DNA from: an uncultured Gammaproteobacteria bacterium
Lineage (GTDB): Bacteria > Patescibacteriota > Patescibacteriia > Magasanikbacterales > UBA922
Assembly: GCA_964550845.1 (NCBI GenBank)
Contig: CAZKAD010000003.1
Span: forward strand, 447-64,446
Length of the DNA stretch: 64,000 nucleotides
Reading direction: 5' to 3'
The notes beneath the pieces are model-generated. The model was not told the DNA's origin. It made no database searches and saw only the letters and a program-made list of their open reading frames with translations. A program made the translations under genes and the position numbers. The number at the start of each line of letters is the position of its first letter. The first letter of the stretch is position 1. Below, one piece after another: positions 2,311-56,182 of the stretch.

Positions 2311-2586
2311 ATGGCGAAATCAAAATCGAGATCGCGGCGATCAAAATCGCGACGATCGAAGAGTAAATCTCGATCAAAGCGATCAAAGAAGTATTCTTGC
2401 AAACGTGTCAAGCCAAAGAAGCGAAGCAAGTCGAAGAAATCGAAGCGAGCAAAGAAATCAAAGAAGGAGAAGGTTGAATCAACTCAGTCTCATTCTTTGT
2501 TGGCTAGATTGTCACGCACGAGTGCGAGCGCTGCACCTGCAGACGCGCCAATTGAATGGAAAGCAGGAGTAAATTGGGTAAAGTAA
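2311..2586 (+). CDS. Protamine-like, highly basic SR/KS/KR-rich small protein
   Basis: 91 aa, more than 60% K/R/S (SKSRSRRSKSRRSKSKSRSKRSKK...). The context among other basic proteins supports a real gene rather than a frame artefact. Confidence 0.5.
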   Translation: MAKSKSRSRRSKSRRSKSKSRSKRSKKYSCKRVKPKKRSKSKKSKRAKKSKKEKVESTQSHSLLARLSRTSASAAPADAPIEWKAGVNWVK

Positions 2587-2594
2587 AAAATTGA
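2587..2594 (+). promoter_or_regulatory. AAAATTGA octamer (Mimiviridae-type early promoter) upstream of the Skp1-like gene
   Basis: Exact octamer 66 nt upstream of the ATG at 2660. It is immediately followed by a perfect hairpin, ATCTGGGgtttCCCAGAT (2601..2618), after the stop of the preceding gene. Confidence 0.5.
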
Positions 2595-2659
2595 TTTTTT
2601 ATCTGGGGTTTCCCAGATAAAAATAACAAAATAACATAAATCTTAATCTCACAATCGAA

Positions 2660-3277
2660 ATGTCTACTGAAGAACAAAAGATCGAAACGTCTACTAACGA
2701 ACAAAAGATGGAAATTGAAGGACTTGATGCTGGAGTACAAGATGATTTCATCAAATTGAATTGTCGGGATAAAGTAATCGTTTCTGTGCATAGAAGAGCC
2801 TGTAGACTGTCTTCCTTGTTTCGAGGTTTACTCGAAACTCAGCCATGTGCGCCCGAGCATGAGGTTAAACAGATCGACTCTCATATCATGAAGCTAATTG
2901 TTGAATATCTTGAACATTATCGATACGAAGAACCGAAGATTCTGGAACCTCCATTGAAGACTCCTGATCTAAAGGATCACGCCTCGGAATGGGATTGCAA
3001 GTTTGTTGCATACGACACCCCCGAACAGATGGGAACTTTTCTGACGCTGCTCAATGCGGCAAATTTCTTGGAAATTATTTCGCTGAGAAATCTTTGCTGT
3101 GCAAAGTTCGCCACATTTCTCAAAACTAAAAATGTTGATGCATTGAAGGCATTGTTTAATGTGAAAGCCACGTTGACTCCCAAAGAAGAAAACGAAATTC
3201 GAAAGAAGTACCCCGAATACTTTGCTTGGTTGAAGTCTTCGCAAGAGACAAAAACCGAGAGTAAAGTTGACGAATAG
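2660..3277 (+). CDS. Skp1 homolog (adaptor subunit of SCF ubiquitin ligases)
   Basis: Aligns with Skp1 along its length. The N-terminal BTB/POZ-like part is ...KLNCRDKVIVSVHRRACRLSSLFRGLLE... The C-terminal F-box-binding part is EWDCKFVAYDTPEQMGTFLTLLNAANFLEIISLRNLCCAKFATFLKTKNVDALKALFNVKATLTPKEENEIRKKYPEYFAW, compared with Skp1 [54 protein letters not shown]...EEEAQVRKENQW. The true start may be Met17 (2708). Confidence 0.8.
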   Translation: MSTEEQKIETSTNEQKMEIEGLDAGVQDDFIKLNCRDKVIVSVHRRACRLSSLFRGLLETQPCAPEHEVKQIDSHIMKLIVEYLEHYRYEEPKILEPPLKTPDLKDHASEWDCKFVAYDTPEQMGTFLTLLNAANFLEIISLRNLCCAKFATFLKTKNVDALKALFNVKATLTPKEENEIRKKYPEYFAWLKSSQETKTESKVDE

Positions 3278-3392
3278 CCGAACTCATTGATGTGTGTAAA
3301 TTCGATAATAAAATGATTTTAATTCTTCTCGAAGAACTAAAAATAATACGTACTACTTACTTAAAATAATCTTCAGATGAGAAAGTAAAGTT

Positions 3393-3806
3393 ATGCTAAC
3401 TTTTATTTTTATTCGAAGGATCAATATGTACCATTTTCTTAAGAATTGTTTTCCTTCGTTGACACGCAAAACATACAATTACACTGTCCGATCTCCAAGC
3501 TTTCAAGGATGGGTGATTGGAAAACATCAAAATATTGATGTCTGTTGCTGTGCCATATTCCGTAAAGGACCAAAAATAAAAATGGGCTTATTTGCGGTGC
3601 TTCCACACTATCAAAACAAAGGTTTTGGGAGAGAAATGTACAAATATCTCTGTAATCAATATCATTCTTTCCAATGGACAACTAACACACAAAAAGCATA
3701 CAATTTTTGGATCAAATGCGGAGCCATATTAATTGATACTTACATTATGGATGGAGTTAAATACCATCTGTTCAAGAACGCGCCAGTCGAAGAAAAAAAG
3801 AAATAA
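3393..3806 (+). CDS. Small GNAT-family acetyltransferase-like protein
   Basis: LPHYQNKGFGREMYKYL resembles GNAT motif A (Q/R-x-x-G-x-G/A). Confidence 0.4.
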   Translation: MLTFIFIRRINMYHFLKNCFPSLTRKTYNYTVRSPSFQGWVIGKHQNIDVCCCAIFRKGPKIKMGLFAVLPHYQNKGFGREMYKYLCNQYHSFQWTTNTQKAYNFWIKCGAILIDTYIMDGVKYHLFKNAPVEEKKK

Positions 3807-3892
3807 TTTCCTTTGGGAAATTATTAATTAAACGTCCTTGAAGGACTTTTAAGCGTCCTCGAGAAGGACTTTTAAACGTTCTCGAAAAGAAC
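3805..3892. terminator. Array of 3'-end hairpins shared by the convergent genes 3393..3806 and 3896..4123
   Basis: AATTTCCtttGGGAAATT overlaps the TAA stop. It is followed by TTAAACGTCCttgaaGGAC, GCGTCCtcgagaaGGAC and ACGTTCtcgaaaaGAAC. Confidence 0.6.
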
Positions 3893-3895
3893 TCT

Positions 3896-4123
3896 TTAAA
3901 AATATTTTTCAACCTTATCCTGCATGCTGTCAGGCACAAAAAGATGGTATCCTCCATAGAGAACTCCTAGAGAACCTCCAATAATCATGACGGTATGAAG
4001 GAAAGTTAGAATATTCATTTGAGTACTGGCAACTTGTTGACCATTTCGGCATTTTCGTTCCGAGTCAAGAGCCAATGAGGCGTAGACAAGAATAAAAGCA
4101 GCGACAATAAAAACTGCAAGCAT
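3896..4123 (-). CDS. Small membrane protein with two predicted TM helices
   Basis: 75-aa ORF with two hydrophobic stretches (AVFIVAAFILVYASLAL; VMIIGGSLGVLYGGY). It is convergent with 3393..3806 and shares the terminator hairpins. Confidence 0.4.
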   Translation of the reverse strand: MLAVFIVAAFILVYASLALDSERKCRNGQQVASTQMNILTFLHTVMIIGGSLGVLYGGYHLFVPDSMQDKVEKYF

Positions 4124-4159
4124 TTTCCTTTGGAAGGAAGAAAAAAGAATTTTCTTTTT

Positions 4160-4687
4160 TCAGGGAATGATTGGCTCCGAGACACAATAGACATACCCGT
4201 TATTGAACAAATTTCCATTGGTGGTGAGAGAAAGGGTTTGCATACTGCCATTCAAAAAGAGAGAAATTTTACGCTGAACGAGTGTAAGCTTAATCTTCGG
4301 ATTTCGTGTTGGTAAAATAACTTGCTGGGAAAATAAGTCATCAGGTCCCCGAACCAAGTCGAAAATATGAGCCCCAATAAACTGTGTTGCTTCGGCTCGA
4401 TCAAGACTAAGCAACATTTTTTGAACATCTTTCGGAAGTGAATCGTCCGGTACAACCAGTAAAGTCACTTTTGCTTTCGGATCATTGAGAAGATCTGGAA
4501 AATGTGTTTTTTCAACAAGAGTTTTGTAGATGGAAAAATTTTTATCTTGAAGAGCACTGTAAATTGTCCCCGGTTGAGGAGTCCAAGCAAGATAAGGATT
4601 TTTTGCAAGTGCTCGATCAAAACGAAGTTCACCTACACTGGGAAACTCTTTCGACCATTCTACGTTATACCCGCTGGTGACTGACAT
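4160..4687 (-). CDS. Fasciclin (FAS1)-like domain protein
   Basis: KVTLLVVPDDSLPKDVQKMLLSLDRAEATQFIGAHIF...NGYVYCVSEPIIP matches the FAS1 pattern TVFAPTNEAF..LP......IL.YHVV...NGVIHVID.VL.P. Confidence 0.45.
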   Translation of the reverse strand: MSVTSGYNVEWSKEFPSVGELRFDRALAKNPYLAWTPQPGTIYSALQDKNFSIYKTLVEKTHFPDLLNDPKAKVTLLVVPDDSLPKDVQKMLLSLDRAEATQFIGAHIFDLVRGPDDLFSQQVILPTRNPKIKLTLVQRKISLFLNGSMQTLSLTTNGNLFNNGYVYCVSEPIIP

Positions 4688-6927: not shown

Positions 6928-9900
6928 ATGGCTGTCTTCTTCGCAAAAAGTCGGGACCCATTTTCAAACTTTTATCCGGTCTCATTTACTGTCGATGATT
7001 TGAAATACTCGAGTTCGGAACAGTATTTTATGGCCTCGAAAGCGAGATTCTTTAAAGATGTTGAAGCGGAGGACCAGATTATGGAAGCGGAATCTCCGAA
7101 AGAACAAAGAGAACTTGGACGTTCAGTCAAAAAGTTTGATCCAAGAGAATGGGATCGAGTTAAATTTAAAATCATGAAACAAGCCCTGTTGATTAAATTT
7201 CAACTTCCAAAGATGAAAAAGTTCCTTGTTGAGAGTCAACGAAAAGTTTTAATTGAAGCTGCACCTTGGGACGCGATTTGGGGAATTGGAATGGATGCTG
7301 ATAAAGCTGTGAATACACCCTTTCGTGAATGGGGAAAGAATGGACTTGGATTCTTATTGATGGAAGTTCGAGATTTTCTCCAAGGTAATTGGATTCAAGA
7401 AGACTTTGGTGTCTCAATGATTGGAAATTTCTATATCGGTGCACATCCAACTGAAGACCAAGCAAAGTTTCTTTTGGGAAAAGGAGTGAATCTATTTGTC
7501 TCCCTTGAGGAAAATCCAAGATATTTATCAGTTGTTGGTCAAGCATCGTCAAAAGTTTTTGCTCTTCCTACAGGAGGTATTCGAAATGATCAAGAGACAC
7601 TTGAATTTCTCGGTTGGTTACGAGATCAATATTTTCTCGGAAAAATCATTTATCTCCATAGTCGAAGAGGAATTGGAAGAACCGGATTGATTGCCAGTTT
7701 ATTTCTGAACTTGTTTCTCGGATATCAACCAAGTGATGCGTTGGATAAAGTTCGAAAATCTATTCATAGTCGAACTAATTTTAACCAGTCCTTCGGGACG
7801 TTTAAGCTTAAATTTATGCCTATTCCAGAAACTGCTTCACAAATAACTCAATTCACTCGTCTTGCCGACGGTGATAAAACCGATATTGATATGTCTGCTT
7901 ATACTCTTGAAGCAGAGAAAGCATGGATGACAAAACTTTCTGAAATTGAGCAAGACGACTTGATGACACGGGAAGATGTCGAATTGTATCAACAAATTGT
8001 ATCTCCTTCCTCTTCTTCAAAGGAAGTGAAAAAGGAAGATGAAATTAAACGTCTTGAAAAGTCTCTTAATCTTCCTGTTGGTGCAATTGAAGATGAGCAA
8101 GAAAATGACCCTCTTGCGGGTGCACTCGCAGAACTTGAACTTCGAAAGAGTGAAGAGAAGGAAGAACTTCGAAAGAGTGAAGAGAAGGAAGAACTTCGAA
8201 AGAGTGAAGAGAAGGACCCATTTGAAGCTGAACTTGAAGCGTTTGAAAATGAGGGTAAAAAAGATCCGCTCGAAGCTGAACTCGAGGCATTTGAGAATGA
8301 AGTAATCGAGCCTGACATCAAAACTTTCCTTGAAGAAGAGGCTAAAGTTGAAGTTAAACAACGAACTTCATTGACCGATCGAGATCTCGAAGAACAATTT
8401 CGACGTTTCGCTAATCAAGAACTTCATCTTCAAGCCGAGGAAGGTACATTTGTTCTTCAATCTGTCTTGAATGATATTTTCAATCGTTTTCTCGAACAAC
8501 AAAATATTCAAATTATCGATGTCGATAAGTTTGAACAAATCGCAATTCCCCTAATTGGAGAACCAGAGAAAATCGAATCAAAAATTCCCGAGTATGATGG
8601 AGATAAATATATTGAATCAAAAGTGTCAAAGTTGAATACTGGTTATCGAGTCAACTTTCGACTTCTTCCCGATGCAAATATTCGAATTACAAAAGTAAAA
8701 TCGCCAAAGCGATCACAAAAGAAGAAATCGAAAAGTGAAACTTTGTCTGAGAAAAAAGATGTTTCTCAATTGAGTCAAATTGAACCACCGAAAGAAGAGG
8801 TGAAAGAAGTGAAGATCGAGAAAAAACTTTCGTCATTTTTGTCCCATTTCTTCCCTGGCGATATTACCTTCATTCAACCGAATATCAATTTCACCGAAGA
8901 AACTTTGCATTATATGTCTCCAATGAGTAAAGCCGACAAACTCGCCGCATTACTTAAGACATATCCTCGTGCACAATTAGTTGTCGATGTTTTTGCTGGT
9001 ATTGGAGGCAATACACTTGGATTTGCTCGTGCAGGATTGCGTGTAGTCGCATATGAACGAGATCCGGAACGATTTAAAATGTTGAGAAATAACGTCCTTC
9101 ATTATCGGTTTGAGAAACAAGTGACGACGATTCGAGGAGAATTTAACCCCGGAAAAGATCTCGATATTATTCGAACTATTCAAAAGATTGAAGCAGACAA
9201 AGTAGTCTTCTTCTTTGATCCTCCATGGCTTCCATCTTTTGTCCAAAACTTTGACAAGTCACAATACATCTTAACTGGAATTACTCTTGCCGGTCAACTA
9301 CTTGAAGACATTGCTAAGAAAACTTTGCAGGAATATGGAGGATCGATATTTCATTTGCCTCCCGGTTACTCACTCAATTTGGCTGGAAGAATTGTTGATG
9401 ATAAATCTGATAACAAAGCGAGATTGATTTACTTTTTTGGCGATCAAATTCAAGCCAATATTGCCAAAGATTACAAACTGCAGATCAATTATGCAACTGA
9501 ATTTCCACGTGAACAATCCGAGGTCAAATATTCTCAAAATGAGTTAGTTGAACAACTGAAAGAAGTTGAACAACAAAAAGTGGAAGCTAAATTGTATCAA
9601 CCTCCGGTCAAAACAGTCTCGGTGGTCTTTCAAACTTTTCTGAATAAAAGCTTTCCTCGACGATCATATCAACATGAACCTTTCCATCCGAAAGCGGTTC
9701 ATAGTGGACAGCGAAAATTACTCTTGTCCGAGATTGAATTCTTGACTCGAGTTCTCTCAAAGGAAAAAACACTCGGTAAAGGCGGATCTTATACTATGCT
9801 TTACGTTGGAGCCGCGCCAGGAATTCATATTCCTTTGCTTGCAAATAAGTTTCCTGAAGTCAAGTTTATTTTGTATGATCCGGCCAAATTTGATATTGCT

Positions 9901-10542
9901 CCATCATCTCAGATCGAAATTCATCGAGAACTTTTCACTGATGAAAAAGTCGAAATGTACAAGAAGACTGAAAATTTATTGTTTGTGAGTGATATTCGAT
10001 CGACGCCGAAACAATTCGATCCAAATCAATCCGGCTTTGATTCGAGTTTTGAACAAGAGGTGATTTTTAACATGGAGCAACAAAAGAAATGGGTGACGGA
10101 ACTTCAACCACTCAGAAGTCTACTTAAATTTCGTCTTCCTTACAATGATCCTGAAAACCCTCGAGATGAACAGGAAACATTTAAATATCTTGATGGTATT
10201 CTTTTTTTCCAAGCTTATCCTCCAGAGCAATCAGGAGAAACTCGGCTTGAAGTTGGACTTCCGTTGAAAGAGACTGGTTATTTTCTTGCCCAGTATGAAC
10301 AGCAAATGTTTTATTTTAATACTCGATATCGGATTCAATCCTTCTCTCATTATTCACAATTTTACGGATGGTCTTATGATACTCTGAGAGAATACTTTAT
10401 TCTTCAAAACTATTACAAATTTCGTGGGATTATCGACAGTGATAAGAAGATCGAATATGATTTTCAAGATCACGACCGGATGGCTCACGGCCCGGAAAAG
10501 AAGATTTTTAACATTCTTCGTAACGCGGCAAAATACGGATAA
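6928..10542 (+). CDS. Multidomain RNA cap-modifying protein: NADAR (YbiA-like) domain, dual-specificity phosphatase / Mce1-like RNA triphosphatase-like domain with the catalytic Cys replaced by Ser, an acidic coiled-coil linker, a Tgs1-like cap guanine-N2 methyltransferase and a poxvirus VP39-like cap 2'-O-methyltransferase
   Basis: NADAR: FSNFYP...SSEQYFMASKARFF...LGR...W....IMKQALLIKFQ...LIEAAPWDAIWGIGMD...LGFLLMEVRDFL, which follows the YbiA consensus. PTP-like: IYLHSRRGIGRTGL, a Cx5R P-loop in which the Cys is Ser (agt at the catalytic position). Tgs1-like: VVDVFAGIGGNTLGFARAGLRVVAYERDP...FFFDPPW. VP39-like: HSGQRKLLLSEIEFLT...GGSYTMLYVGAAPGIHI...KFILYDP, compared with vaccinia VP39 FEGQKKLL..EF / VVYIGSAPGTHI. 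No guanylyltransferase KxDG motif was seen. Confidence 0.85.
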   Translation: MAVFFAKSRDPFSNFYPVSFTVDDLKYSSSEQYFMASKARFFKDVEAEDQIMEAESPKEQRELGRSVKKFDPREWDRVKFKIMKQALLIKFQLPKMKKFLVESQRKVLIEAAPWDAIWGIGMDADKAVNTPFREWGKNGLGFLLMEVRDFLQGNWIQEDFGVSMIGNFYIGAHPTEDQAKFLLGKGVNLFVSLEENPRYLSVVGQASSKVFALPTGGIRNDQETLEFLGWLRDQYFLGKIIYLHSRRGIGRTGLIASLFLNLFLGYQPSDALDKVRKSIHSRTNFNQSFGTFKLKFMPIPETASQITQFTRLADGDKTDIDMSAYTLEAEKAWMTKLSEIEQDDLMTREDVELYQQIVSPSSSSKEVKKEDEIKRLEKSLNLPVGAIEDEQENDPLAGALAELELRKSEEKEELRKSEEKEELRKSEEKDPFEAELEAFENEGKKDPLEAELEAFENEVIEPDIKTFLEEEAKVEVKQRTSLTDRDLEEQFRRFANQELHLQAEEGTFVLQSVLNDIFNRFLEQQNIQIIDVDKFEQIAIPLIGEPEKIESKIPEYDGDKYIESKVSKLNTGYRVNFRLLPDANIRITKVKSPKRSQKKKSKSETLSEKKDVSQLSQIEPPKEEVKEVKIEKKLSSFLSHFFPGDITFIQPNINFTEETLHYMSPMSKADKLAALLKTYPRAQLVVDVFAGIGGNTLGFARAGLRVVAYERDPERFKMLRNNVLHYRFEKQVTTIRGEFNPGKDLDIIRTIQKIEADKVVFFFDPPWLPSFVQNFDKSQYILTGITLAGQLLEDIAKKTLQEYGGSIFHLPPGYSLNLAGRIVDDKSDNKARLIYFFGDQIQANIAKDYKLQINYATEFPREQSEVKYSQNELVEQLKEVEQQKVEAKLYQPPVKTVSVVFQTFLNKSFPRRSYQHEPFHPKAVHSGQRKLLLSEIEFLTRVLSKEKTLGKGGSYTMLYVGAAPGIHIPLLANKFPEVKFILYDPAKFDIAPSSQIEIHRELFTDEKVEMYKKTENLLFVSDIRSTPKQFDPNQSGFDSSFEQEVIFNMEQQKKWVTELQPLRSLLKFRLPYNDPENPRDEQETFKYLDGILFFQAYPPEQSGETRLEVGLPLKETGYFLAQYEQQMFYFNTRYRIQSFSHYSQFYGWSYDTLREYFILQNYYKFRGIIDSDKKIEYDFQDHDRMAHGPEKKIFNILRNAAKYG

Positions 10543-37390: not shown

Positions 37391-39592
37391 TTATTCTTTT
37401 CTTCCATTCCCAGATGAATACCGAAGAATTTCTTCTTCATTGATTGGCTCTTCTTCCGGTTCAAGTCCCGAAGGGACGGATTCAAGTCCCGAAGGGACGG
37501 ATTCAACCGTTTGTTGAATTGGTGGAGGAGGTGATAATTGTTCAATCACTAGAGGAGATCTCCGAATTCCTTTGAGTCGTTCGGCATCTTCGGGTTGAAT
37601 ATTCTTTTTGTCAACAACAGTGTAACTCTTTCCATCAGGTCGATAAATGTGCTGTTCCTTTCGATAGAGTTGATAAACAAGTTTCTCCGATCCAGCTTGA
37701 CAGTGATCGGCCGAAATGTACAATTCGCTTTGTTTTTGTTCATCGTTGACTAAACCATAATTAATTGTGTAATCGAGACGTTTGTGATATCCTCGTTCAT
37801 CTTTCATTGGCTTGAGGACAAAATGTCTCGCTCCAAAAAAGAAGGAGTCAATTGCCATCGTAACCTGTTTAAGTGGAATCAGGAAGTTTCCAGTGAGTCG
37901 AAGAAGAAAATATCCATCTTCAAGAGGGGGATTTTTTGGACTTTTATCTTTACCTGAACAACCAAAGAAAATATTCGAATTTCTTTCACTCGTTTTCCCT
38001 GTGATGTAATATTGATTCTTAATCAGATTAAAAATGCCGTAAACATTGCCTATCATCACTTCGGAATTGTTTGACGCGTCGTCGTTCAAATCCGACAAAC
38101 TATTTGCAATATAGTTCAAGTCTGGATAGTGCCTCAATACACGATTAAAGTTGACATGTTTACTCACTTCTTCTTCAAACTTTTCAAACTGCTCGACCCA
38201 ATTCTTAATGAGTTTATTGAGAAAAGGGAGGATTGAACGATTGCACTGAAATTCTTCCAGATTCCAATTGCAAGAATTTTTGTAAAGAAATCTCAAAGCA
38301 TCGCGATAAGACATCACAGTTGAGCAAAATGGAGTCATAAATTCTTGAGCTTTTGCCAAAAGAGCAATTTTAGGGGAAGATTCAATTCCTTCTGAAGAAT
38401 TTACTTGGAATTGTCTAAGCTCGGGAAATTCAAATCCAAACTCGTTCGGGTCAAACGAAAAAAGTTTGAGAAAATGTTCAATTGAGAAGCAATAAATTTG
38501 ATCTCCAACTTGAATAGTCGCTTTGAAAGTATCTTCAATTTGATCGAATTTTGTCTCATCAAACATAATATAATCGAAGCATTTTGTCGGAAGATCTTCT
38601 TCAATCAATTCGATCGCCTTTCCGAAATCTTTCTTTATTAATTCGATTGAATAGATTACTTCACCATGAATATAGAAATGAAGATGATTGAGTGTCAAGA
38701 CAAGATGGGGAATTTCACCAATTTTTGAAATTTGATCGGCAAGTGAATTCCATTTATTGACATAAGCGTCGACAAAATTTGTACCATATTCATGTGGATA
38801 ATAAGGATATGGCTCTTCTGGTTTTGGATAAACTTTGGCGTACTTTCGAATAAAATTGTACATCGGAGATTCATGAAGAGCATAGTCGAGTCCGGACCAG
38901 TCGAATGAAAATCCTCTTGACATATACTTTTCAACACGACGAAGCGTTCGGAACCATTCATATGGAGACTGTTCAAAAATGGCATTTGAATTGAGTGATG
39001 TTTTACGTTGTTTCAAGTTGGTATTTTCAAATGAAGTGATCAGTTTCTCTCCATCTGTAAACACACAACAAGCGTCAATGTCAAACGATTCGACGAGATC
39101 TTTTAAAGCAACGTTTGCATGAGTTAAAATTGCTTGAACATCAGGTTTCCTTCTATTTGTATCTTGGTAAACGTAGATTGTTCTCACCCATCTCTTCAAT
39201 CTTGAATATGTGTCAGATTCAGTCAAGACAGTTCCATGCTTTACAGGAAGATTATATCCCTGTGCAAGGAGATAAGAAGAGAGTTTTCGAAGTTTATCTT
39301 TATCAGCAATCCAAATATCTACATCCGAATCGCCCCATTTTTCTCCAATTAAATGTTGAAGGGGGAAACTACCTGCAATAATCATTTCATTTTGAGAGAG
39401 AAGATCTTGGAGTCCTGGAAATTGATTGTCAAACCAATTCTGTAGTGAATCTGGCAATCGATGAATCGAAACTTTTCTCTGAACATCAGAAGCTTCACTG
39501 ACTGATTTCAATAAGAAGGGGAATTTATTTTCTGCGATCCCTTCGTTATCGAGCTGCGATGAAGTCGCGCCCATGTTGTCTTTTCCATTCAT
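37391..39592 (-). CDS. Large protein with a pol-beta-type nucleotidyltransferase-fold motif; tandem paralog of 35348..37354
   Basis: AGSFPLQHLIGEKWGDSDVDIW and FDIDACCVF. The C-terminus has a duplicated SVPSGLE repeat (the DNA repeat ccgaagggacggattcaagtc x2 at about 37460..37505). Confidence 0.7.
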   Translation of the reverse strand: MNGKDNMGATSSQLDNEGIAENKFPFLLKSVSEASDVQRKVSIHRLPDSLQNWFDNQFPGLQDLLSQNEMIIAGSFPLQHLIGEKWGDSDVDIWIADKDKLRKLSSYLLAQGYNLPVKHGTVLTESDTYSRLKRWVRTIYVYQDTNRRKPDVQAILTHANVALKDLVESFDIDACCVFTDGEKLITSFENTNLKQRKTSLNSNAIFEQSPYEWFRTLRRVEKYMSRGFSFDWSGLDYALHESPMYNFIRKYAKVYPKPEEPYPYYPHEYGTNFVDAYVNKWNSLADQISKIGEIPHLVLTLNHLHFYIHGEVIYSIELIKKDFGKAIELIEEDLPTKCFDYIMFDETKFDQIEDTFKATIQVGDQIYCFSIEHFLKLFSFDPNEFGFEFPELRQFQVNSSEGIESSPKIALLAKAQEFMTPFCSTVMSYRDALRFLYKNSCNWNLEEFQCNRSILPFLNKLIKNWVEQFEKFEEEVSKHVNFNRVLRHYPDLNYIANSLSDLNDDASNNSEVMIGNVYGIFNLIKNQYYITGKTSERNSNIFFGCSGKDKSPKNPPLEDGYFLLRLTGNFLIPLKQVTMAIDSFFFGARHFVLKPMKDERGYHKRLDYTINYGLVNDEQKQSELYISADHCQAGSEKLVYQLYRKEQHIYRPDGKSYTVVDKKNIQPEDAERLKGIRRSPLVIEQLSPPPPIQQTVESVPSGLESVPSGLEPEEEPINEEEILRYSSGNGRKE

Positions 39593-46584: not shown

Positions 46585-47886
46585 TTATTCTTTTGGTAGA
46601 GAAAGATCGAAGTTTGGAAAAGATGCTCGAAAATCAAGCACTTTTGCACCAACACTCATTGCATATTTTCTTCGTGAAAGATAATGCTTTTCAAGATTGG
46701 GTAAATTGTCTACCAAGTCGACAATAATAGGAGAAACATCTTCTCTACGGACACATCTTCCAAAATATTGTGCAAACATTTCTTCGACATCAGAAGCAAG
46801 GATTAACATATCCAATTTTGGATGATCAAAACCAACTCCACTCTTCGAGAAAGTAGTGACCAGAATTCTTGCATCACGATTGAAATCTGATTTCGATCCA
46901 GTCGTATAATCAACGCTCTCTTTACAGTGCAATAAATTGTAATACAAAGTTTCTGTTTGTTTAACTCTTTTACAAAGAACTAAGATATTTCTGTCTTTAA
47001 ACAGGCGACATAACTGAATGATCCAAATATTTCTCTGATTATGATCGGCTTGAAAAGCTAGCACTGAATTCCAATCAGTTCTTCCTTGCATATTCATTTT
47101 CTTTGGAGGAATCAGTCTTGTTTCGAGTTTGTAGTAGATACATTCAACTTGAAGAGGTACAATAATTCGATCTTCACTAAAATGAAGATCAAGAATTTTA
47201 TCCATTTCGTCACTTCGATCTGGTGTTGCAGTCAAACCAATACAAATTTTAGGGCAAAAATAAAAGAGAGCTCGACTCATCTTTTCGGAACAAATCGCAT
47301 GTGCTTCATCAACAATCAGACAACCAATATTAGCAAATTCTGCTCTGTTTCTTTTCATTACATTAATTGGATTCATTAAGACAAAGTCCGCTGATGGATC
47401 AATTAGCGACTTACTATCAAGCAGCTGAACTTTTGCTTTCGGAAGAACCTTTTCAATAGTTTCCTTCCATTGATCAAATAAACTAATACGATGCATTAAT
47501 ACCATGGTTTGATATCCAAACAAAGAAGCGAGATAAATTGAAGTCAATGTTTTTCCTTTTCCTGTAGCCATAGATAAGAAAGCTGTTCTCACTTTCAACA
47601 ATCGTTCAATTGCTTGTTTAGCAACTTTTTCCTGATATTCTCGAAGTTTTCCTTCAAACGGTAAAGATTTTTGTGTAAACGGAAAAGCTTCATTTGGATA
47701 TTGTTTCAAATATTGACAGCCGAAATAAAAAGGAAGATAGACATTTTCACCATCAATTTCATATGCGTTCACTACAACGCCTTCAGTTTGAATAAATGGA
47801 TTATCTTTACTTCTTACTTCAAGTTGTTGAGTTAAAGTTTCACGCTGTTGCTGTGTAAGTTTTTGAAGAGGAACAGCAATTGACAT
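46585..47886 (-). CDS. SF2 helicase (DEAH box; NCLDV D6/A18-like, XPB-type)
   Basis: Motif I ATGKGKT, motif II LIVDEAH, motif III GLTATPDR and motif VI QYFGRCVRR. Confidence 0.8.
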   Translation of the reverse strand: MSIAVPLQKLTQQQRETLTQQLEVRSKDNPFIQTEGVVVNAYEIDGENVYLPFYFGCQYLKQYPNEAFPFTQKSLPFEGKLREYQEKVAKQAIERLLKVRTAFLSMATGKGKTLTSIYLASLFGYQTMVLMHRISLFDQWKETIEKVLPKAKVQLLDSKSLIDPSADFVLMNPINVMKRNRAEFANIGCLIVDEAHAICSEKMSRALFYFCPKICIGLTATPDRSDEMDKILDLHFSEDRIIVPLQVECIYYKLETRLIPPKKMNMQGRTDWNSVLAFQADHNQRNIWIIQLCRLFKDRNILVLCKRVKQTETLYYNLLHCKESVDYTTGSKSDFNRDARILVTTFSKSGVGFDHPKLDMLILASDVEEMFAQYFGRCVRREDVSPIIVDLVDNLPNLEKHYLSRRKYAMSVGAKVLDFRASFPNFDLSLPKE

Positions 47887-47924: not shown

Positions 47925-47968
47925 ATTAAACGCCAGAGGGCTGGTTAAACGCCAGAGGGCTGGTTAAA
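47925..47968. promoter_or_regulatory. Two tandem copies of the conserved palindromic element with a variant stem (TTAAACGCCAGagggCTGGTTAAA x2), in a divergent intergenic region
   Basis: Direct reading. The flanks are conserved and the stem differs (GCCAG/CTGGC) but still pairs, which is a compensatory change. It lies between the starts of 46585..47886 (-) and 48040..49707 (+). Confidence 0.55.
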
Positions 47969-48039: not shown

Positions 48040-49707
48040 ATGCCTCGTCGATCGACTCGACTTCATTTTCGAAAACTTGAAAATGGCGAAGTCATTCTTC
48101 TGAATGATAATCCAAATAGCGTCGAAGATGACGCAATCGAAGTTGTGACACGTGGAGGAAAGAGAAAACTAATTTTTGATGACGAAGATCAACCAGTTGA
48201 AGTTGATGTTCCTCCATTAGCCCAATTGAATCCTCCAGTTTCAAATATTCAAAAGAATGAGTTTGATCCACTTGAACAAACTTATATCGACTTTTACACT
48301 CTTGTAATTGGGGACGAGAAACTTTCTCGCAAACAAAGAAAATTACTCCGGGGTTATTGTAAAGAAGTGATTCAAGAGCAACCATCAGCTTTAAAGTTAC
48401 TTACGAGTAACATCTTTCATTCAGATAAATTAAAGTTACTTGAAATGCTTCGAGTGTTGAAGGATAAAGATCCGGACTCAGAAGATTATCTTGATTACAA
48501 AAAAGTTTATCAAACTAAATTTGAATCTGCACAGCGAAATTTCGATGAATTGTTAAGTCTACCACCTGATCTACAACGATCTCATACCGAAGAAAAAGAT
48601 CGAATCGACAAACTTGCCCAAAAGAAATCTTTTTCATTTCAAATCATCAATCTTCCTGTTGATGATGAGACTAAACGTTTCATCTATCAACGATATATTC
48701 ACTATGAACGAATGGGTAATAGTGATGATGAAAAGCCAAAACTTGAACAATGGTTGAACACAGTCTTGCAGATTCCGTATAAAGTGTTTATTGATCTTCC
48801 TTCAGAACGAGAATTTTGTTTGCGTAATTTTCGAGATATTCTTGATCGGGAAATTTATGGCATGCAAGTAGTCAAAGAGCAACTGTTGGTCTTTTTGAAT
48901 ACCAAATTGACCAATCCGCATGTTCAGGGATCCAATCTTGCTCTCCTTGGTCCTCCGGGAGTAGGTAAAACAAAAATTGCTCGCTTAATGGCGAAGGCAC
49001 TCAATCTTCCTTTTGCTCAAGTTCCTTGCGGCGGCCTTGAATCAATCGATCGTATCCGAGGTCATTCATATACTTATATTGGTTCTCAACCAGGTGAAAT
49101 AACTTCAGCCGTCCTTTCAATGAAAGCAAACAATGGGGTTATGTTCTTTGATGAATTTGAAAAGATTGGAAGTGAAAAAGCTCATCTGACTAATAGTTTG
49201 TACAATATTTTTCTCCATATTCTTGATCCTGAGCAAAATGGGAACTTTCATGATGATTACCTCGGGCTTGAAATTCCGATTGATCTTTCTCGAATGTGGT
49301 TCATTCTTGCAATGAATAGTTTACCAAATTTTCAACCTTTGATTGACAGATTGTATGTTGTTCAAGTTCCAGCATATACAATTCGAGAAAAGATTATTAT
49401 CGCCCAACGACATTTAATTCCGGAGATTTTCGCTGCATTGAAACTTGATCAAAATAGTATCATATTTACCGATGAAATTATCTCTCGTATTATTCATCAC
49501 TTTAATCTATCCAGTATTCCGGGTTTGAGACAATTAAAGAATATTCTTCGAGAGATTGTGCTAAAGATTCATTTCCTTCAAACGTCAAATCTTCAAATCT
49601 CTTTTCAATTGAAGAATATGAAACTTCCTTACAAACTTCAAGAAGAAGATCTTGATAAACTTCAATTAAATGTGAGTAAAGAAGATCGCCCTTCAATGTG
49701 GACTTGA
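48040..49707 (+). CDS. Lon-type AAA+ ATPase module with no protease domain
   Basis: [54 protein letters not shown]...[12 protein letters not shown]...LHILDPEQN...LAMN..., compared with E. coli Lon [55 protein letters not shown]...LFLLDEIDKMSSD...LEVLDPEQN...FVATSN. The ORF stops about 30 aa after the AAA+ alpha-subdomain and no Ser-Lys protease domain follows. Confidence 0.8.
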   Translation: [555 protein letters not shown]

Positions 49708-49769
49708 AACTCGTCCTTCACCGTGGACTTGAAACTCGTCCTTCACCGTGGACTTGAAACTCGTCCTCG
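49699..49769. repeat. Three tandem copies of a 25-nt hairpin repeat (TGGACTTGAAACTCGTCCTTCACCG); the first copy overlaps the last codons and stop of the Lon-like gene
   Basis: Direct reading. Each unit carries the inverted repeat GGAC..GTCC. The array is followed at 49770..49777 by AAAATTGA for the Pol X gene. Confidence 0.8.
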
Positions 49770-49822
49770 AAAATTGATTAAATTTCTGATTTTTGTTAAT
49801 CAACAAAAATCAATTAATAGTA

Positions 49823-50770
49823 ATGTCCTCAAAGAAAATCGAATTTGAGAGAGGAGTTCCTCGAACTGAGTTTCTCTTTCAACTTGAAGCTCTGACAAGA
49901 GCTGCGAAAGGATTTCGAAAAAGAGCATTCACCAACGCAATTGAATCACTGAAGGGAATCTCAAACGAACTCCTCTATTACAACGATCTTCATGAATTGA
50001 AGGGATTTGGAGAAGGAATGTTAAATCGGTTTCTTGAATATCAGTCAACTGGCCAACTCAAAGAGCTAATTTTTTCTGCCGAAGAACAAGAACGCAAGCG
50101 AGTACTCGATCTTTTTCAAGGTATCTATGGAGTTGGAGAAGTTACTGCAACTGTTTGGTATGAGAAAGGTTTGCGTTCACTTGAAGATTTGATTAAATTC
50201 AATATTCCCTTGACCGATCATCAACGAGTTGGATTGTATTATTACAATCAAATTAATTCGCGAATTGAGCGAAAAGAGATTGATGAATTTAACCAACAAC
50301 TTCAAAAGAAAGTTGTTGAGTTTAATCAAGAAAATAAGGTACAAATTGAAATGAAAATATGTGGTAGCTATCTTCGAGGTAAAACGACTTCTGGTGATAT
50401 TGATGTAATCGTTCGAGAAAAGAATGATCAGTTACCTTGTTTAATTGATAGTCTATTGAAATATTTATATCCACTTGTTCGACATATTCTTGGTCAAGGT
50501 AATGTTAAAATTTTGACTCTTGGAGGATCAACAGATATCCATCGAAGAATCGACTTTGAACTCGTTGAGAATGCAAGATGGCCATTTGCCTTATTGTATT
50601 TCACTGGTTCAAAAGATTTTAATCGACAAATGAGAGAGATTGCAAAAAAGAAAGGTCTTCTTCTCAATCAACGAGGCTTATTTTACGGCAATCAAGAATT
50701 TCTTTACAAAGAAGAAAAAGATATTTTTGATGCCCTCGGAATGACTTACTTATCTCCTGAACAACGATAA
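49823..50770 (+). CDS. DNA polymerase family X (Pol beta-like)
   Basis: GIYGVGEVTATVWYEKGLRSLEDL (HhH), CGSYLRGKTTSGDIDVIV (nucleotidyltransferase motif; compare Pol beta GSFRRGAESSGDMDVLL) and FALLYFTGSKDFNRQMR. Start taken at MSSKK (49823), 46 nt downstream of AAAATTGA. Confidence 0.85.
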   Translation: MSSKKIEFERGVPRTEFLFQLEALTRAAKGFRKRAFTNAIESLKGISNELLYYNDLHELKGFGEGMLNRFLEYQSTGQLKELIFSAEEQERKRVLDLFQGIYGVGEVTATVWYEKGLRSLEDLIKFNIPLTDHQRVGLYYYNQINSRIERKEIDEFNQQLQKKVVEFNQENKVQIEMKICGSYLRGKTTSGDIDVIVREKNDQLPCLIDSLLKYLYPLVRHILGQGNVKILTLGGSTDIHRRIDFELVENARWPFALLYFTGSKDFNRQMREIAKKKGLLLNQRGLFYGNQEFLYKEEKDIFDALGMTYLSPEQR

Positions 50771-50837: not shown

Positions 50838-51749
50838 ATGACGTCAACTCTTCAGTTTCCGAAGCGACTCGAAGAACATGGAATTAAGATTGTTTTTGCG
50901 ATCGAGAAACCAATCGTCACAATAAGTCATGACAATGTAAACGATTTTACAGTTGACTTTACCGATGAAAAAGCAAGTTTAACCAATCCTAAAGGACGTT
51001 TAACTCGAGGTTGTCGTAAAGAGACAATGAATAAGGGCGAAGAAGGCGATTGGTATTTTCTTCGTTCAAACAATGGTATCTATACAATTCGCAGCAGATG
51101 TGATTGGCAAGTAATTGATCCAAATGGTAAGCCAATATTCAAGCTGGATCATTTTCCTCAACGATGTCCCACAATCTCTCCTTCTGGAAGATATATTTCT
51201 TACGTGATATGCTCTCGTGTCATCGAAAAGACTAAAAGTATACTCATTGATCTTCAAGATCAAAAGATTTTTGAATATATAGGATTACCGGCTAACTTTT
51301 CACCAGATGAAAAGTATTTTGCTTATCCTCTTGTGAATGAGGTGTTTGTTTGCACTACTAAAGATAAGAAGCTTGTTATCCAACATTCTTTTTCAAAATA
51401 CAATCCTCACATTAACACTGTTCTTTTGTCTAACACTCATATCGTCATTATTTGGAGAGGCTTGCATGGAACTATAAAAGTAATGAAAATTGGTGAAAAA
51501 AATGTCACACATACTGATCAATCAGCATATTACCATATTCACTCTCATCTTTATTCTGATGGAACTCTATTATCTGTTGGAACAGATGAAATTAAAAAGA
51601 TCAAGTTTAATTTTGAAGAACCGAAGATTGAATCAGTTCCTCCAAATATCGAGATGAATCAAAAAGACGATTCGGTTCCTTCAAATATCGAGATGAATCA
51701 AAAAGACGATTCGGTTCCTCCAAATATCGAGATGAATCAAAACGTTTGA
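50838..51749 (+). CDS. Hypothetical protein (possibly a beta-propeller) with three C-terminal PPNIEMNQKDDSV repeats
   Basis: 303-aa ORF. 3x 39-nt repeat at 51640..51745. Confidence 0.6.
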   Translation: MTSTLQFPKRLEEHGIKIVFAIEKPIVTISHDNVNDFTVDFTDEKASLTNPKGRLTRGCRKETMNKGEEGDWYFLRSNNGIYTIRSRCDWQVIDPNGKPIFKLDHFPQRCPTISPSGRYISYVICSRVIEKTKSILIDLQDQKIFEYIGLPANFSPDEKYFAYPLVNEVFVCTTKDKKLVIQHSFSKYNPHINTVLLSNTHIVIIWRGLHGTIKVMKIGEKNVTHTDQSAYYHIHSHLYSDGTLLSVGTDEIKKIKFNFEEPKIESVPPNIEMNQKDDSVPSNIEMNQKDDSVPPNIEMNQNV

Positions 51750-51758
51750 ACATTTTAA

Positions 51759-51800
51759 TCATCCTTTGGGATGATTAAACGTCCTTTGGGACTGGTTAAG
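51759..51800. terminator. Hairpin ATCATCCtttGGGATGAT followed by the conserved element TAAACGTCCtttGGGACTGGTTAAG between convergent genes; its TTA is the stop of 51796..52785
   Basis: Direct reading. Confidence 0.65.
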
Positions 51801-52785
51801 TATAAAACTCTTTACGAATTTTCTTCGGAAAAAGATCTTGTAAAGTATCAACTAATTCGGAGTCGTGTTCAATCAAACATTGTAAACATTCTCGTTTATC
51901 TATTTTATTTGCACGAAGTAATATTTCGAGTTCATCTGGATGTTCGATTAAGTGTTCAGAAAATGGACATTCAAGAAAGATAAATAAATCAAGGGAGAAA
52001 TGATATCTCAATATCTTTTCCCAAAGAGGATGACTCTTCGAAAAATATTCAAAGAAAATTTCAATCTGAAAACCACCAAAAGAATTGAAGGAAGTAAACC
52101 TGGTTAAAGACAAATTCCATCTTTGATTAATGTCATCAAGAATTTGATCTCCTGGGAAATATTTCTTTATCATTTGATACCATCGGTGATAATCAATAAA
52201 AGTAAAGTTTAGCGATTGCAAAAAAAGTAGGAAAATTTTCGCCTCGATACTAACTCCATATTCCAAATAAACTGTTCCAGCTTGATGAATATCTTCGGCT
52301 AGATTCATAAAAATAAATTTAATATCATCAAACGAAAGTACATCCTGTTTTCGTTTATACTTCAAGAGTAAATTAAGCAAGTGATATTTTTCTGATACAA
52401 TTACATATACTGAGTATTCGTGCAAAAGTTTAAATCCAGAAATGCAATAATTATTTACCAATGAAAAAATATAATCTATCATTTCCGGTGAAGATAAATC
52501 GATGCAATGATAACTTGTATGCAAAGGTGACCAATAAAATGCGGTTATGTCTCCGCGGATATATTTTTGTGCCGTTTTAATAAAAAGATCATCTGGGAAA
52601 TAACATATCAAACCTCTTGGATAAATGGCTTGTAATTTATCTGCTTGGGAGAGATCAACAAAATTGGTAATTAACAAAAATAATCTTGGATCATACAAAT
52701 CTTTTGTTAAAAAAGAATTCCAATTTGTCTCTCGATTAGATAAACCTGACGCAATTAATTGAATCAAACGGTCAGAAATTGACAT
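51796..52785 (-). CDS. Member of the 'FLTxDLYDPRLL' family, with the motif at the N-terminus
   Basis: N-terminus MSISDRLIQLIASGLSNRETNWNSFLTKDLYDPRLFLLITNFVDLS... Confidence 0.65.
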   Translation of the reverse strand: MSISDRLIQLIASGLSNRETNWNSFLTKDLYDPRLFLLITNFVDLSQADKLQAIYPRGLICYFPDDLFIKTAQKYIRGDITAFYWSPLHTSYHCIDLSSPEMIDYIFSLVNNYCISGFKLLHEYSVYVIVSEKYHLLNLLLKYKRKQDVLSFDDIKFIFMNLAEDIHQAGTVYLEYGVSIEAKIFLLFLQSLNFTFIDYHRWYQMIKKYFPGDQILDDINQRWNLSLTRFTSFNSFGGFQIEIFFEYFSKSHPLWEKILRYHFSLDLFIFLECPFSEHLIEHPDELEILLRANKIDKRECLQCLIEHDSELVDTLQDLFPKKIRKEFYT

Positions 52786-54376: not shown

Positions 54377-56182
54377 ATGCCTCTTCGCAAACTGGCTTTC
54401 TATGTGAATCAACTTGTTTCGACCTCTCTAAATGATTTCTTCTTGAATTGTCTCAAGGAAATTCAAGAACAGACAAAATCTAATTCGGCGAATCTTCGGG
54501 TCTTTAACGGTCCGACAATTCAAACCTCAACAGATTCAATTGAAACAAATATTCATTCGGAGAAAGCAATCATTACGCGATCTATTTATTTTGACGAAAA
54601 AGAATCATGGATACCCTTATTATCTGGAGATAAAGTCTGTGGTCTAATTGGCTTACTCAGTCCAAAAGAGCGTCCAAATCAGTTTGTTGAACAACTAATC
54701 AACTTAATTGTTGCTCGAATTCTATCGATCAAGAAAGAATTACCAAATGATTCTTTTATCTCGAACATGAGTCATGAATTGAGAAATCCTTTGAACGGGT
54801 TACTGGGATATCTTCAAATTCTTGAATCATCGGGGTTAAATTCTGCTCAACAAGGATATCTCTACTCGGCACAAAAATGCGGTTTGAGTTTAATTCGAGT
54901 CGTCAACGATATCTTAGATTACTCAAAACTAATGTCAGGTAAAATGAAGTTAAACGTACAAATTACCAATTTGTATGATTTACTTGGTTTTGTCGAAGAA
55001 ACTCTCCATATTTCAATCCAAGAAAAAGGACACACTTTTACCCTCTTTTTTCATCCAGATGTCCCAAAGATGATTTTAACCGATTCTCAAAAATTAGCTC
55101 AGATTTGTATTAATCTGCTAAGTAATGCAATTAAATTCACACCGGCGAAAGGAAAAATTAACTTTGAAGTAAATCTGATGATCAAAGAAAAAGAATATCT
55201 TATCTTTAAGATTGCCGATACTGGTTGTGGCATTTCAAAAATTCAATCGGATGAATTGTTTCGAACTTTTACTCGACTTCATCATTCAAGAGAAGAGGGA
55301 ACAGGGCTTGGATTAGTTATTTCGAAAAAACTAACCGAATTGCTCTCAGGAACTATTCGTCTTGAAAAATCTTCATCTGAAGGTTCGGAATTTGTTTTTG
55401 AAATTCCACTTCAGAGAGCTCAAGAAGTTCGAAGTTCTCAACTTGGATTTAAGAAAGAAGTTTGTTTATTTGTTTCAGAGAAAGTTCAAACAGAATTAAA
55501 TCCACTGCTATTACGATGGGGAATGAAAGTATTTAATGTTCAATCTTTTTCAGAACTTTTAACAATCTTGAGCAGTTATGTATATGATTTTGAACTTGTC
55601 ATTCTTGAAGATGGAGAAAAAGAATTTGAACAAAATTCGAATAAGATTTGGGAAATTTGTCCAAAAATTCCAATTATACATGCCTGTAAAATCTTACCTC
55701 AAAAGAAGAGTGACTCATATTTTCATCTGCTTAATTTTACTCCAACAGAATTGTACAATTGTATTGCAAGGGCCTTGGAAAATTCTCTCTATTTGAAAAA
55801 GAAAAATTCGATTCGACTTGATCTGAAGAAAAAGATTTTGATTGCTGAAGATGATCCAAGTGGAAGGGAAATTTTGTCTAGATTACTCCAATCAATTGGT
55901 TTCTCGGAAATTGATTGTGCCGAAGATGGTCTTCAAGCCTTGAATATGATTCAAAAGAAAAGTTATTCTTACTTATTCATTGATTTGAAAATGCCGGTTA
56001 TTGACGGGTATGAAGTAATTACCACAATAAATAAGAAACCAAATAAGACAATGAAATTAATTTGTGTTTCAGCATCTGTTACAGATGAAGATAAACAATT
56101 TTGTCAAAAAGCATCTGTTCCATTTCTTGCAAAACCGGTTCAATTTCGAAATCTACAAGACTTGATGGTTTCATTGAGTTAG
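54377..56182 (+). CDS. Hybrid sensor histidine kinase: N-terminal sensor region, HisKA, HATPase_c, a degenerate middle domain and a C-terminal receiver (REC) domain; soluble
   Basis: H-box MSHELRNPLNGLLGYLQIL. N box LLSNAIKFT. G1 DTGCGI. G2 GTGLGLVISKKL. Receiver: ILIAEDDPSGREIL...LFIDLKMPVIDGYEV...LAKP. No TM helices were seen. Confidence 0.85.
   Translation: MPLRKLAFYVNQLVSTSLNDFFLNCLKEIQEQTKSNSANLRVFNGPTIQTSTDSIETNIHSEKAIITRSIYFDEKESWIPLLSGDKVCGLIGLLSPKERPNQFVEQLINLIVARILSIKKELPNDSFISNMSHELRNPLNGLLGYLQILESSGLNSAQQGYLYSAQKCGLSLIRVVNDILDYSKLMSGKMKLNVQITNLYDLLGFVEETLHISIQEKGHTFTLFFHPDVPKMILTDSQKLAQICINLLSNAIKFTPAKGKINFEVNLMIKEKEYLIFKIADTGCGISKIQSDELFRTFTRLHHSREEGTGLGLVISKKLTELLSGTIRLEKSSSEGSEFVFEIPLQRAQEVRSSQLGFKKEVCLFVSEKVQTELNPLLLRWGMKVFNVQSFSELLTILSSYVYDFELVILEDGEKEFEQNSNKIWEICPKIPIIHACKILPQKKSDSYFHLLNFTPTELYNCIARALENSLYLKKKNSIRLDLKKKILIAEDDPSGREILSRLLQSIGFSEIDCAEDGLQALNMIQKKSYSYLFIDLKMPVIDGYEVITTINKKPNKTMKLICVSASVTDEDKQFCQKASVPFLAKPVQFRNLQDLMVSLS

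Follow-up and report, generated by a model that had tools for sequence, protein, structure and literature searches.

A protease-less LonA-type AAA+ protein of giant viruses with an HbYX-type C-terminal tail that may dock on the host 20S proteasome

We analysed a 64,000-nucleotide stretch of DNA (positions 447 to 64,446 of contig CAZKAD010000003.1, GenBank assembly GCA_964550845.1; hereafter the window), which derives from an Imitervirales-type nucleocytoplasmic large DNA virus, with a focus on a Lon-like gene located between a divergent SF2 helicase gene and a gene for a family X DNA polymerase (Pol X) (Table 1). The Lon-like gene is a complete open reading frame (ORF) at 48040-49707 on the forward strand, encoding a protein of 555 amino acids followed by a stop codon. 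This protein is a LonA-type AAA+ module without the Ser-Lys protease domain: the helical N-region of LonA, the ATPase module and the lid are retained, and the PUA-like domain of the N-terminus has been lost along with the C-terminal protease. The truncation is conserved across a large viral family, and the combination of protease loss with a conserved C-terminal tail of the hydrophobic-tyrosine-X (HbYX) type is an undescribed variant.

Pfam searches with the 555-residue protein returned only AAA-type domains (PF00004 at residues 301-434, E = 5.6e-17), and neither Lon_C (PF05362), the Ser-Lys dyad domain that lies C-terminal to the lid, nor the LON/PUA-like domain (PF02190) was matched. Among sequences of the Protein Data Bank (PDB), the best phmmer match was yeast PIM1 (E = 1.8e-46, query residues 132-512), with further matches to human LONP1 (1.4e-44) and bacterial LonA (~1e-41); the alignments reach residues 512-516, and the nearest non-Lon AAA+ class, ClpX, scored just 1e-8, with other AAA+ classes at 1e-8 or worse. 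An AlphaFold2 monomer model was produced from a 36-sequence family alignment, with a mean predicted local distance difference test (pLDDT) score of 81.4. The top 50 Foldseek matches of this model in the PDB were all LonA structures, at root-mean-square deviations of 2.7-3.5 Å over ~350 columns, and the TM-score relative to 6n2i, an isolated Lon AAA+ domain, was 0.88; matches to full-length LONP1 span ~500 columns, and identity to mitochondrial Lon in the Foldseek comparison is ~28%. A preliminary description of this DNA, made from the sequence alone, had proposed a LonA-type AAA+ module and had suggested Pfam as a check, with AAA present and Lon_C absent. Both points hold, given the Lon-only PDB matches, the Walker A and B motifs, the LDPEQN signature and the lid that were found, and the Pfam result itself.

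The protein begins with a disordered basic/acidic region, containing RGGKRK at residues 38-43, that occupies the position of the PUA-like substrate-binding domain of Lon; across the family, this region is of low complexity and aligns poorly in the 36-sequence alignment. The all-helical N-region that follows corresponds to the long helix and helical bundle ahead of the AAA+ module in LonA. At the other end of the module, the Lon_lid domain (PF22667) was matched in relatives and fell below threshold in the window protein itself. In the model, the final lid helix ends near residue 515, with the stop of the ORF 40 amino acids further on, and the conserved block between lid and tail forms a strand (residues 531-532) and a helix (residues 535-540). 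In alignment, this block corresponds to the segment by which canonical Lon passes into its protease domain, and it probably represents a remnant of that junction. The window protein shares with LonA proteases (bacterial Lon, LONP1, PIM1; MEROPS S16) the pre-ATPase helical region, an HCLR-clade (Lon/ClpX/HslU) AAA+ module bearing LDPEQN and the Lon-specific TY(I/V)G pore loop, a lid, and a short strand and helix leading toward the protease domain, but differs from them in having neither a PUA-like N-domain nor a Ser-Lys protease, and in having gained a disordered N-terminus and an HbYX-type tail.

Residue conservation was assessed in the same 36 sequences, which are 28-87% identical to the window protein. 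The Walker A Gly, Lys and Thr residues, the Walker B Asp-Glu pair, DPxQ of the Lon signature, the sensor-1 Asn, the arginine finger and the sensor-2 Arg are invariant, and the pore-loop Tyr is kept in at least 90% of the sequences; in the window protein, the Lon-type AAA+ feature set is complete, including the TY(I/V)G pore loop and DPEQN. Inteins (PF05203, Hint/homing endonuclease) are inserted in the P-loop of P0034, P0042, P0044, P0049, P0141, P0153, P0239 and P0257, with Walker A interrupted in P0034, P0141, P0153, P0239 and P0257, and such interruptions account for the 'long' family members of 700-1200 amino acids. Such placement of inteins typically marks sites that are strongly constrained in function. 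Because the ATPase and pore residues are conserved, the window protein is expected to hydrolyse ATP and to translocate polypeptide as Lon does, and the unfoldase or remodeller role suggested in the preliminary description appears reasonable from the conservation of all ATPase and pore-loop residues.

Table 1. The Lon-like gene of the window, the parts of its product and the flanking features (positions in the window).
Feature	Position	Strand	Basis or remark
Disordered basic/acidic N-terminal region, residues 1-74	48040..48261	+	pLDDT <50 at residues 1-7 and 25-74
All-helical N-region, residues 77-244	48268..48771	+	Model helices; PIM1 alignment from residue 132; LONP1 Foldseek match
AAA+ large (alpha/beta) subdomain, residues 257-445	48808..49374	+	PF00004 at 301-434; LonA structure matches
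Walker A GPPGVGKT, residues 304-311	48949..48972	+	G304, G307, G309, K310 and T311 invariant (36 sequences)
Pore-loop 1, residues 341-352, aromatic Y346	49060..49095	+	G341, G348 and G352 invariant; T345 and Y346 in at least 90%
Walker B, D371/E372	49138..49164	+	Invariant (36 sequences)
Lon signature LDPEQN, residues 395-400	49222..49239	+	D396 and Q399 invariant; N400 in at least 90%
Sensor-1 N426 (ILAMNS) and arginine finger R437 (LIDRLYVV)	49303..49362	+	N426 and R437 invariant
Alpha-helical lid, residues 446-516, with sensor-2 R497 (PGLRQL)	49375..49587	+	G495 and R497 invariant
Conserved strand and short helix, residues 520-543 (SF.LKN...PY.L....L..L)	49597..49668	+	Conserved block of the family; model
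Flexible C-terminal tail, residues 544-555, ending M-W-T (553-555)	49669..49704	+	Low pLDDT; family C-terminal tally
25-nucleotide tandem direct repeat, 3.3 copies, across the stop codon	49686..49767	+	Starts inside the last codons
AAAATTGA, Mimiviridae early-promoter-like octamer	49770..49777	+	46 nucleotides upstream of the probable Pol X ATG
Family X DNA polymerase (Pol X)	49793..50770	+	PF14716, PF10391, PF14792, PF14791; probable ATG at 49823
Divergent upstream SF2 helicase (ResIII/DEAD)	46585..47886	-	Pfam; syntenic in the ortholog locus

The likelihood that the missing protease is an artefact, with the gene being a truncated pseudogene or a full-length Lon gene broken by a sequencing frameshift, is practically negligible, as nothing speaks for it except the absence of the domain. 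In tblastn searches, full-length bacterial Lon aligns only through its residue 591, corresponding to window nucleotide 49641, and the bacterial Lon protease domain on its own had no match across the 64 kb of the window (best E = 0.88); five diverse Lon_C queries, run against the window and 11 related loci, likewise gave no match at E <=1. Pol X begins ~90-115 nucleotides past the Lon-like stop in the window and at the locus of a 61% identical ortholog (P0003, locus L002) alike, which therefore leaves no room for a protease domain. The exact window protein sequence recurs in independent public assemblies, two relatives, 85% and 61% identical to it, terminate at the same position, and gene order at L002 is that of the window (DUF2738-like, SF2 helicase on the opposite strand, Lon-like, Pol X). 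Homologs from other lineages have different neighbours and are still without a protease, an architecture shared by the 210 family members described below. A frameshift restoring a downstream protease, named in the preliminary description as the finding that would overturn its reading, was thus looked for in every frame and not found, and we rejected a frameshift or pseudogene on account of the identical protein in independent assemblies, the matching ends of the orthologs, which also answer the earlier suggestion to check them for the same truncation, and the lack of Lon_C in any frame. A split protease gene nearby was likewise rejected, none being present in the 64-kb window or the 11 related loci, the range within which the protease ORF elsewhere that had also been suggested was looked for and not found. 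Pfam scans of 42 other window ORFs gave no peptidase domain, and no peptidase is a conserved neighbour of the Lon-like gene in four different lineages.

A Lon without its protease had been regarded as uncommon at the outset, a view that the homolog searches overturned. An initial search gave ~48 clusters of proteins of 480-620 amino acids, on contigs of up to 414 kb, that carry AAA, in some cases Lon_lid and never Lon_C, and that rank above the first canonical Lon. In a profile search of 1.84 billion representatives, the top 150 matches all had E <1e-134, and altogether 210 distinct protease-less homologs were collected from giant-virus-like contigs. Structural matches in BFVD came from Bodo saltans virus, Tupanvirus, Yasminevirus, Gaeavirus, Megavirus, Moumouvirus and a Marseillevirus-labelled bin, all of them giant-virus proteins that bear the name 'ATP-dependent Lon protease' or a similar one; the top matches, with E values from 7e-33 to 1e-22, extend over the entire model, and the Moumouvirus entry L7RFX4 (E = 1.6e-26) and the Megavirus entries were matched by structure only. 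A homolog search seeded with the 1027-residue relative P0134 returned no named cultured-virus proteins. The JGI annotation of the family cluster is also 'ATP-dependent Lon protease', and a 'Lon domain protease' (Mimivirus L251, mimiCOG CLS10009) is listed as a near-core gene of the Mimiviridae (PMC3620924, PMC2245910). These names imply a protease, whereas the window protein and its 210 relatives are without one; the ~1020-residue Mimivirus and Moumouvirus entries, together with one entry named for an 'S16 C-terminal proteolytic domain', may be full-length Lon. The window gene is a member of a giant-virus family that is already known and often mis-annotated.

Long, Lon_C-bearing proteins among the top profile matches were considered as full-length viral ancestors and rejected, as they are bacterial Lons of Dependentiae/Babeliales, whose scores are inflated because two or three tandem AAA+ modules repeat the domain. 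Such tandem-AAA+ Lons, with two or three modules and a single Lon_C, are P0138, P0146, P0166, P0221, P0234, P0241 and P0266; P0138 and P0266 are annotated as Dependentiae/Babeliales (protist symbionts), and P0266 also has ankyrin repeats. On another virus-like contig with a family member (L006), neighbouring genes, at 2919-4163(-) and 2463-2822(+), include an IS605 OrfB/Cas12f-like TnpB gene and an ATG8 homolog.

The last three residues of 177 of the 210 protease-less members are hydrophobic-aromatic-X (Hb-aromatic-X), with the aromatic position taken by Tyr in 154, Phe in 17 and Trp in 6, counts that include related sequences and are not independent trials. The window protein ends in M-W-T, with Trp where Tyr is canonical, and the six Trp-bearing members are its own near-identical clade only; the 61% ortholog P0003, the nearest sequence outside this clade, ends in I-Y-V. 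Among 150 tail-bearing members that were tallied, Tyr occupies position -2 in 135 and Met position -3 in 112, position -1 is variable, and positions -4 to -14 show near-maximal entropy (3.3-4.0 bits). The linker ahead of the motif varies in length and sequence across the family, and the C-terminal end of the window protein (residues 541-555) is predicted to be disordered, with pLDDT values of 57 and then 46. Members without the motif (33 of 210) mostly stop directly after the last conserved helix, and tail-less members are ~15 residues shorter after sensor-2. Protease-less viral forms of 860-1033 amino acids with two tandem Lon AAA+ modules (P0131, P0132, P0134, P0274-P0281) retain the terminal motif, still ending in M-Y/F-X.

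An Hb-aromatic-X terminus was found in 0 of 70 Gemmiger-type canonical Lons and in 0 of 41 diverse bacterial canonical Lons. Among the 73 window ORFs of at least 100 amino acids, the loose motif occurs in six and the strict Tyr form in one, and the published background of HbYX-type termini is 0.7-1.9% of proteins (PMC11475706). The sole other strict HbYX-like C-terminus among these 73 ORFs is that of a 329-residue ORF at 51796-52785(-), ending in F-Y-T. The informative signal is a conserved free C-terminus that follows an unconserved, predicted-disordered linker across clusters of <50% identity. In the literature, we found no prior description linking HbYX with Lon-like or giant-virus proteins.

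The HbYX tails of PAN, Rpt2/3/5, Cdc48, Mpa and Blm10/PA200 insert into pockets of the 20S alpha-ring and open its gate. Docking and gate opening by HbYX have been summarised previously (PMC11475706). We tentatively propose, as the most economical reading and one that is possible though somewhat short of probable, that the window protein is an active Lon-derived unfoldase which no longer has a protease of its own and docks on the 20S proteasome of the host. A Lon-like hexamer would form and thread polypeptides through its pore, the flexible tails would leave it on the exit face, at the former site of the Lon protease ring, and the terminal Hb-aromatic-X (here M-W-T, in relatives mostly M/L-Y-X) would enter the inter-subunit pockets of the 20S alpha-ring, with the viral motor taking the place of the 19S cap. 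Selected host or viral proteins could be fed to the host core particle in this way with no need for ubiquitin, and the helical N-region together with the disordered basic/acidic N-terminus would choose these substrates. In LonA, the chain exits the lid on the substrate-exit face to build the protease ring, and the C-termini here would lie on the docking face, as LonA hexamer structures position the protease ring after the lid. The product would be a virus-host chimeric ATP-dependent protease, and its motor the first proteasome cap from the HCLR clade and the first encoded by a virus, an outcome that we put forward with reserve as possible.

The proposed action would be the same as that of the proteasomal caps PAN, Rpt1-6 and Mpa/ARC, which are also ring unfoldases without a protease of their own and carry a flexible Hb-Tyr-X tail. 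These caps, however, are classical-clade AAA proteins with coiled-coil/OB N-domains, homologous to the window protein only in the AAA+ core, whereas the viral protein is Lon-derived and has Trp for Tyr. Cdc48/p97/VAT are likewise AAA+ unfoldases whose tail is of the HbYX type (L-Y-G in p97), and the archaeal form docks on 20S (PMC11475706, PMC6017811), but they are double-ring classical-clade ATPases, and the eukaryotic tail mainly recruits PUB/PUL cofactors. HslU belongs with Lon to the HCLR clade, is separate from its peptidase and inserts its C-terminal tails between HslV subunits, but it differs in possessing an I-domain, in a tail that is not of the HbYX type and in its partner, HslV instead of the 20S alpha-ring (PMC11475706).

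Several points weigh against docking on 20S, which we infer from a three-residue motif and from the architecture of the protein. In the window protein, Trp replaces Tyr, a variant limited to six near-identical sequences, and Met as the hydrophobic residue is unlike the usual Leu, Phe or Tyr. Furthermore, 16% of members (33/210) presumably work without a tail. To our knowledge, no HCLR-clade motor uses 20S, and the HbYX ATPases known so far are all of the classical AAA clade. HbYX-like tails also bind other partners, as PUB/PUL domains do on the p97 tail, and the six loose motifs among the 73 ORFs are chance occurrences in an AT-rich window.

The tail-less members bear in particular on a different, somewhat unlikely explanation, in which the protein is a stand-alone unfoldase, disaggregase or remodeller without a peptidase, acting for instance in the assembly of viral factories or virions or in the stripping of host complexes, and the tail serves to strap subunits together in place of the protease ring, in autoregulation or in adaptor binding. 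Intact ATPase and pore residues suit such a motor, and the conservation of the tail-less 16% in other respects requires that some activity be independent of the tail; it is also established from Lon structures that loss of the protease ring removes a major oligomerisation interface, which favours a compensating element. A stand-alone motor nevertheless leaves unexplained why an exact free C-terminal Hb-aromatic-X, the 20S-docking signature, follows a variable linker; the motif is missing from every protease-bearing Lon looked at (111), and the tail adopts no docked conformation in the AlphaFold2 monomer. The tail could instead dock on a separately encoded viral peptidase, or an organellar one of the host, in the manner of ClpX-ClpP or HslU-HslV. 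HslU, of the same clade as Lon, activates HslV by C-terminal tail insertion (PMC11475706), and many proteases are encoded by giant viruses (PMC11953307), but this arrangement is improbable given that neither the window nor the 11 related loci hold a Lon_C-like sequence and that the four lineages share no neighbouring peptidase.

The motif evidence that suggests docking on 20S would equally fit a decoy, whose tail mimics Rpt/p97 C-termini and either occupies the 20S alpha pockets, blocking 19S/PA28, or titrates PUB/PUL cofactors; the L-Y-G tail of p97 is indeed bound by PUB and PUL domains. A decoy would, however, not need invariant Walker B, arginine finger, sensor and pore-loop residues, and would not tolerate inteins whose splicing must restore the P-loop, which makes this explanation quite improbable. 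Very improbable, finally, is the mimicry of organellar Lon raised in the preliminary description, in which the protein would co-assemble with mitochondrial or plastid Lon of the host as a dominant-negative subunit. Mitochondrial Lon is the best PDB match and the N-terminus of the window protein is Arg-rich, but the ~28% identity is low for mixed hexamers, and N-termini across the family are variable, disordered and basic then strongly acidic, with no conserved presequence or targeting peptide. Conservation of the catalytic residues is at odds with a poison subunit, and the conserved tail would be left unexplained; being of the HbYX type, it points to the cytosolic/nuclear 20S.

Downstream of the Lon-like gene, what had been described as a hairpin array is a tandem direct repeat, of which copies 2 and 3 re-encode ...RPSPWT and a stop. 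The RNA fold of 49686-49767 is no better than that of shuffled sequences (z = 0.09), and a hairpin array or terminator after the gene was rejected. A repeat also straddles the stop codon of the 61% ortholog (22 nucleotides x 2; L002 7353-7396), with a sequence unrelated to that of the window, and short perfect tandem repeats (19-39 nucleotides, 2-3 copies) lie at further gene ends in the window, at 1828-1935, 3828-3900, 37460-37506 and 47926-47968, which suggests a recurrent process at gene 3' ends in this virus lineage. A coding repeat of 39 nucleotides x 2.7 (VPPNIEMNQKDDS), at 51636-51742, forms the end of the ORF that follows Pol X (50838-51749).

The sequence following the repeat had been taken for the Pol X promoter, and the position of the octamer AAAATTGA fits this assignment. 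At least nine copies of AAAATTGA lie 30-55 nucleotides upstream of ORF starts, like the Mimiviridae early promoter (for example 5996, 6887, 11293(-), 29542(-), 34878(-), 44928(-), 49770, 50796 and 63106(-)). The octamer is not enriched over the window as a whole (23 observed, 23.9 expected), and it is only its position ahead of starts that is suggestive of a promoter. Between AAAATTGA and the Pol X ATG lies a perfect 11-bp inverted repeat with a 4-nucleotide loop (TGATTTTTGTT/AACAAAAATCA), at 49787-49812.

Elsewhere, the window encodes a P9-type minor capsid protein, collagen-repeat proteins, protein kinases and a SWIB protein. A fusion protein of 1204 amino acids (6928-10542(+)) joins NADAR, a cap-guanine-N2/Trm-like methyltransferase and a poxvirus VP39-like (PARP_regulatory) domain in this order, an unusual set of domains for chemistry of the RNA cap or related to NAD. 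A hybrid histidine kinase (HisKA, HATPase_c, receiver) at 54377-56182(+) is syntenic in the related contig L002, from 13091 onward. The window also holds a homolog of Skp1, an SCF ubiquitin ligase adaptor (PF01466 + PF03931), at 2660-3277(+); the virus therefore already engages the host ubiquitin-proteasome system, a context in favour of the proposed docking, and probably redirects the degradation that this system carries out.

Even if docking on 20S proves wrong, the family offers a clean natural case of a Lon motor working in the absence of its protease, and should no longer be annotated as one. If docking is true, proteasome caps can arise from another AAA+ clade, through the loss of a domain and the gain of three residues. 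Giant viruses would then have a direct, ubiquitin-independent route to host proteolysis by which they choose the proteins to be destroyed, and the widely mis-annotated 'Lon protease' family of the Nucleocytoviricota would gain a function.

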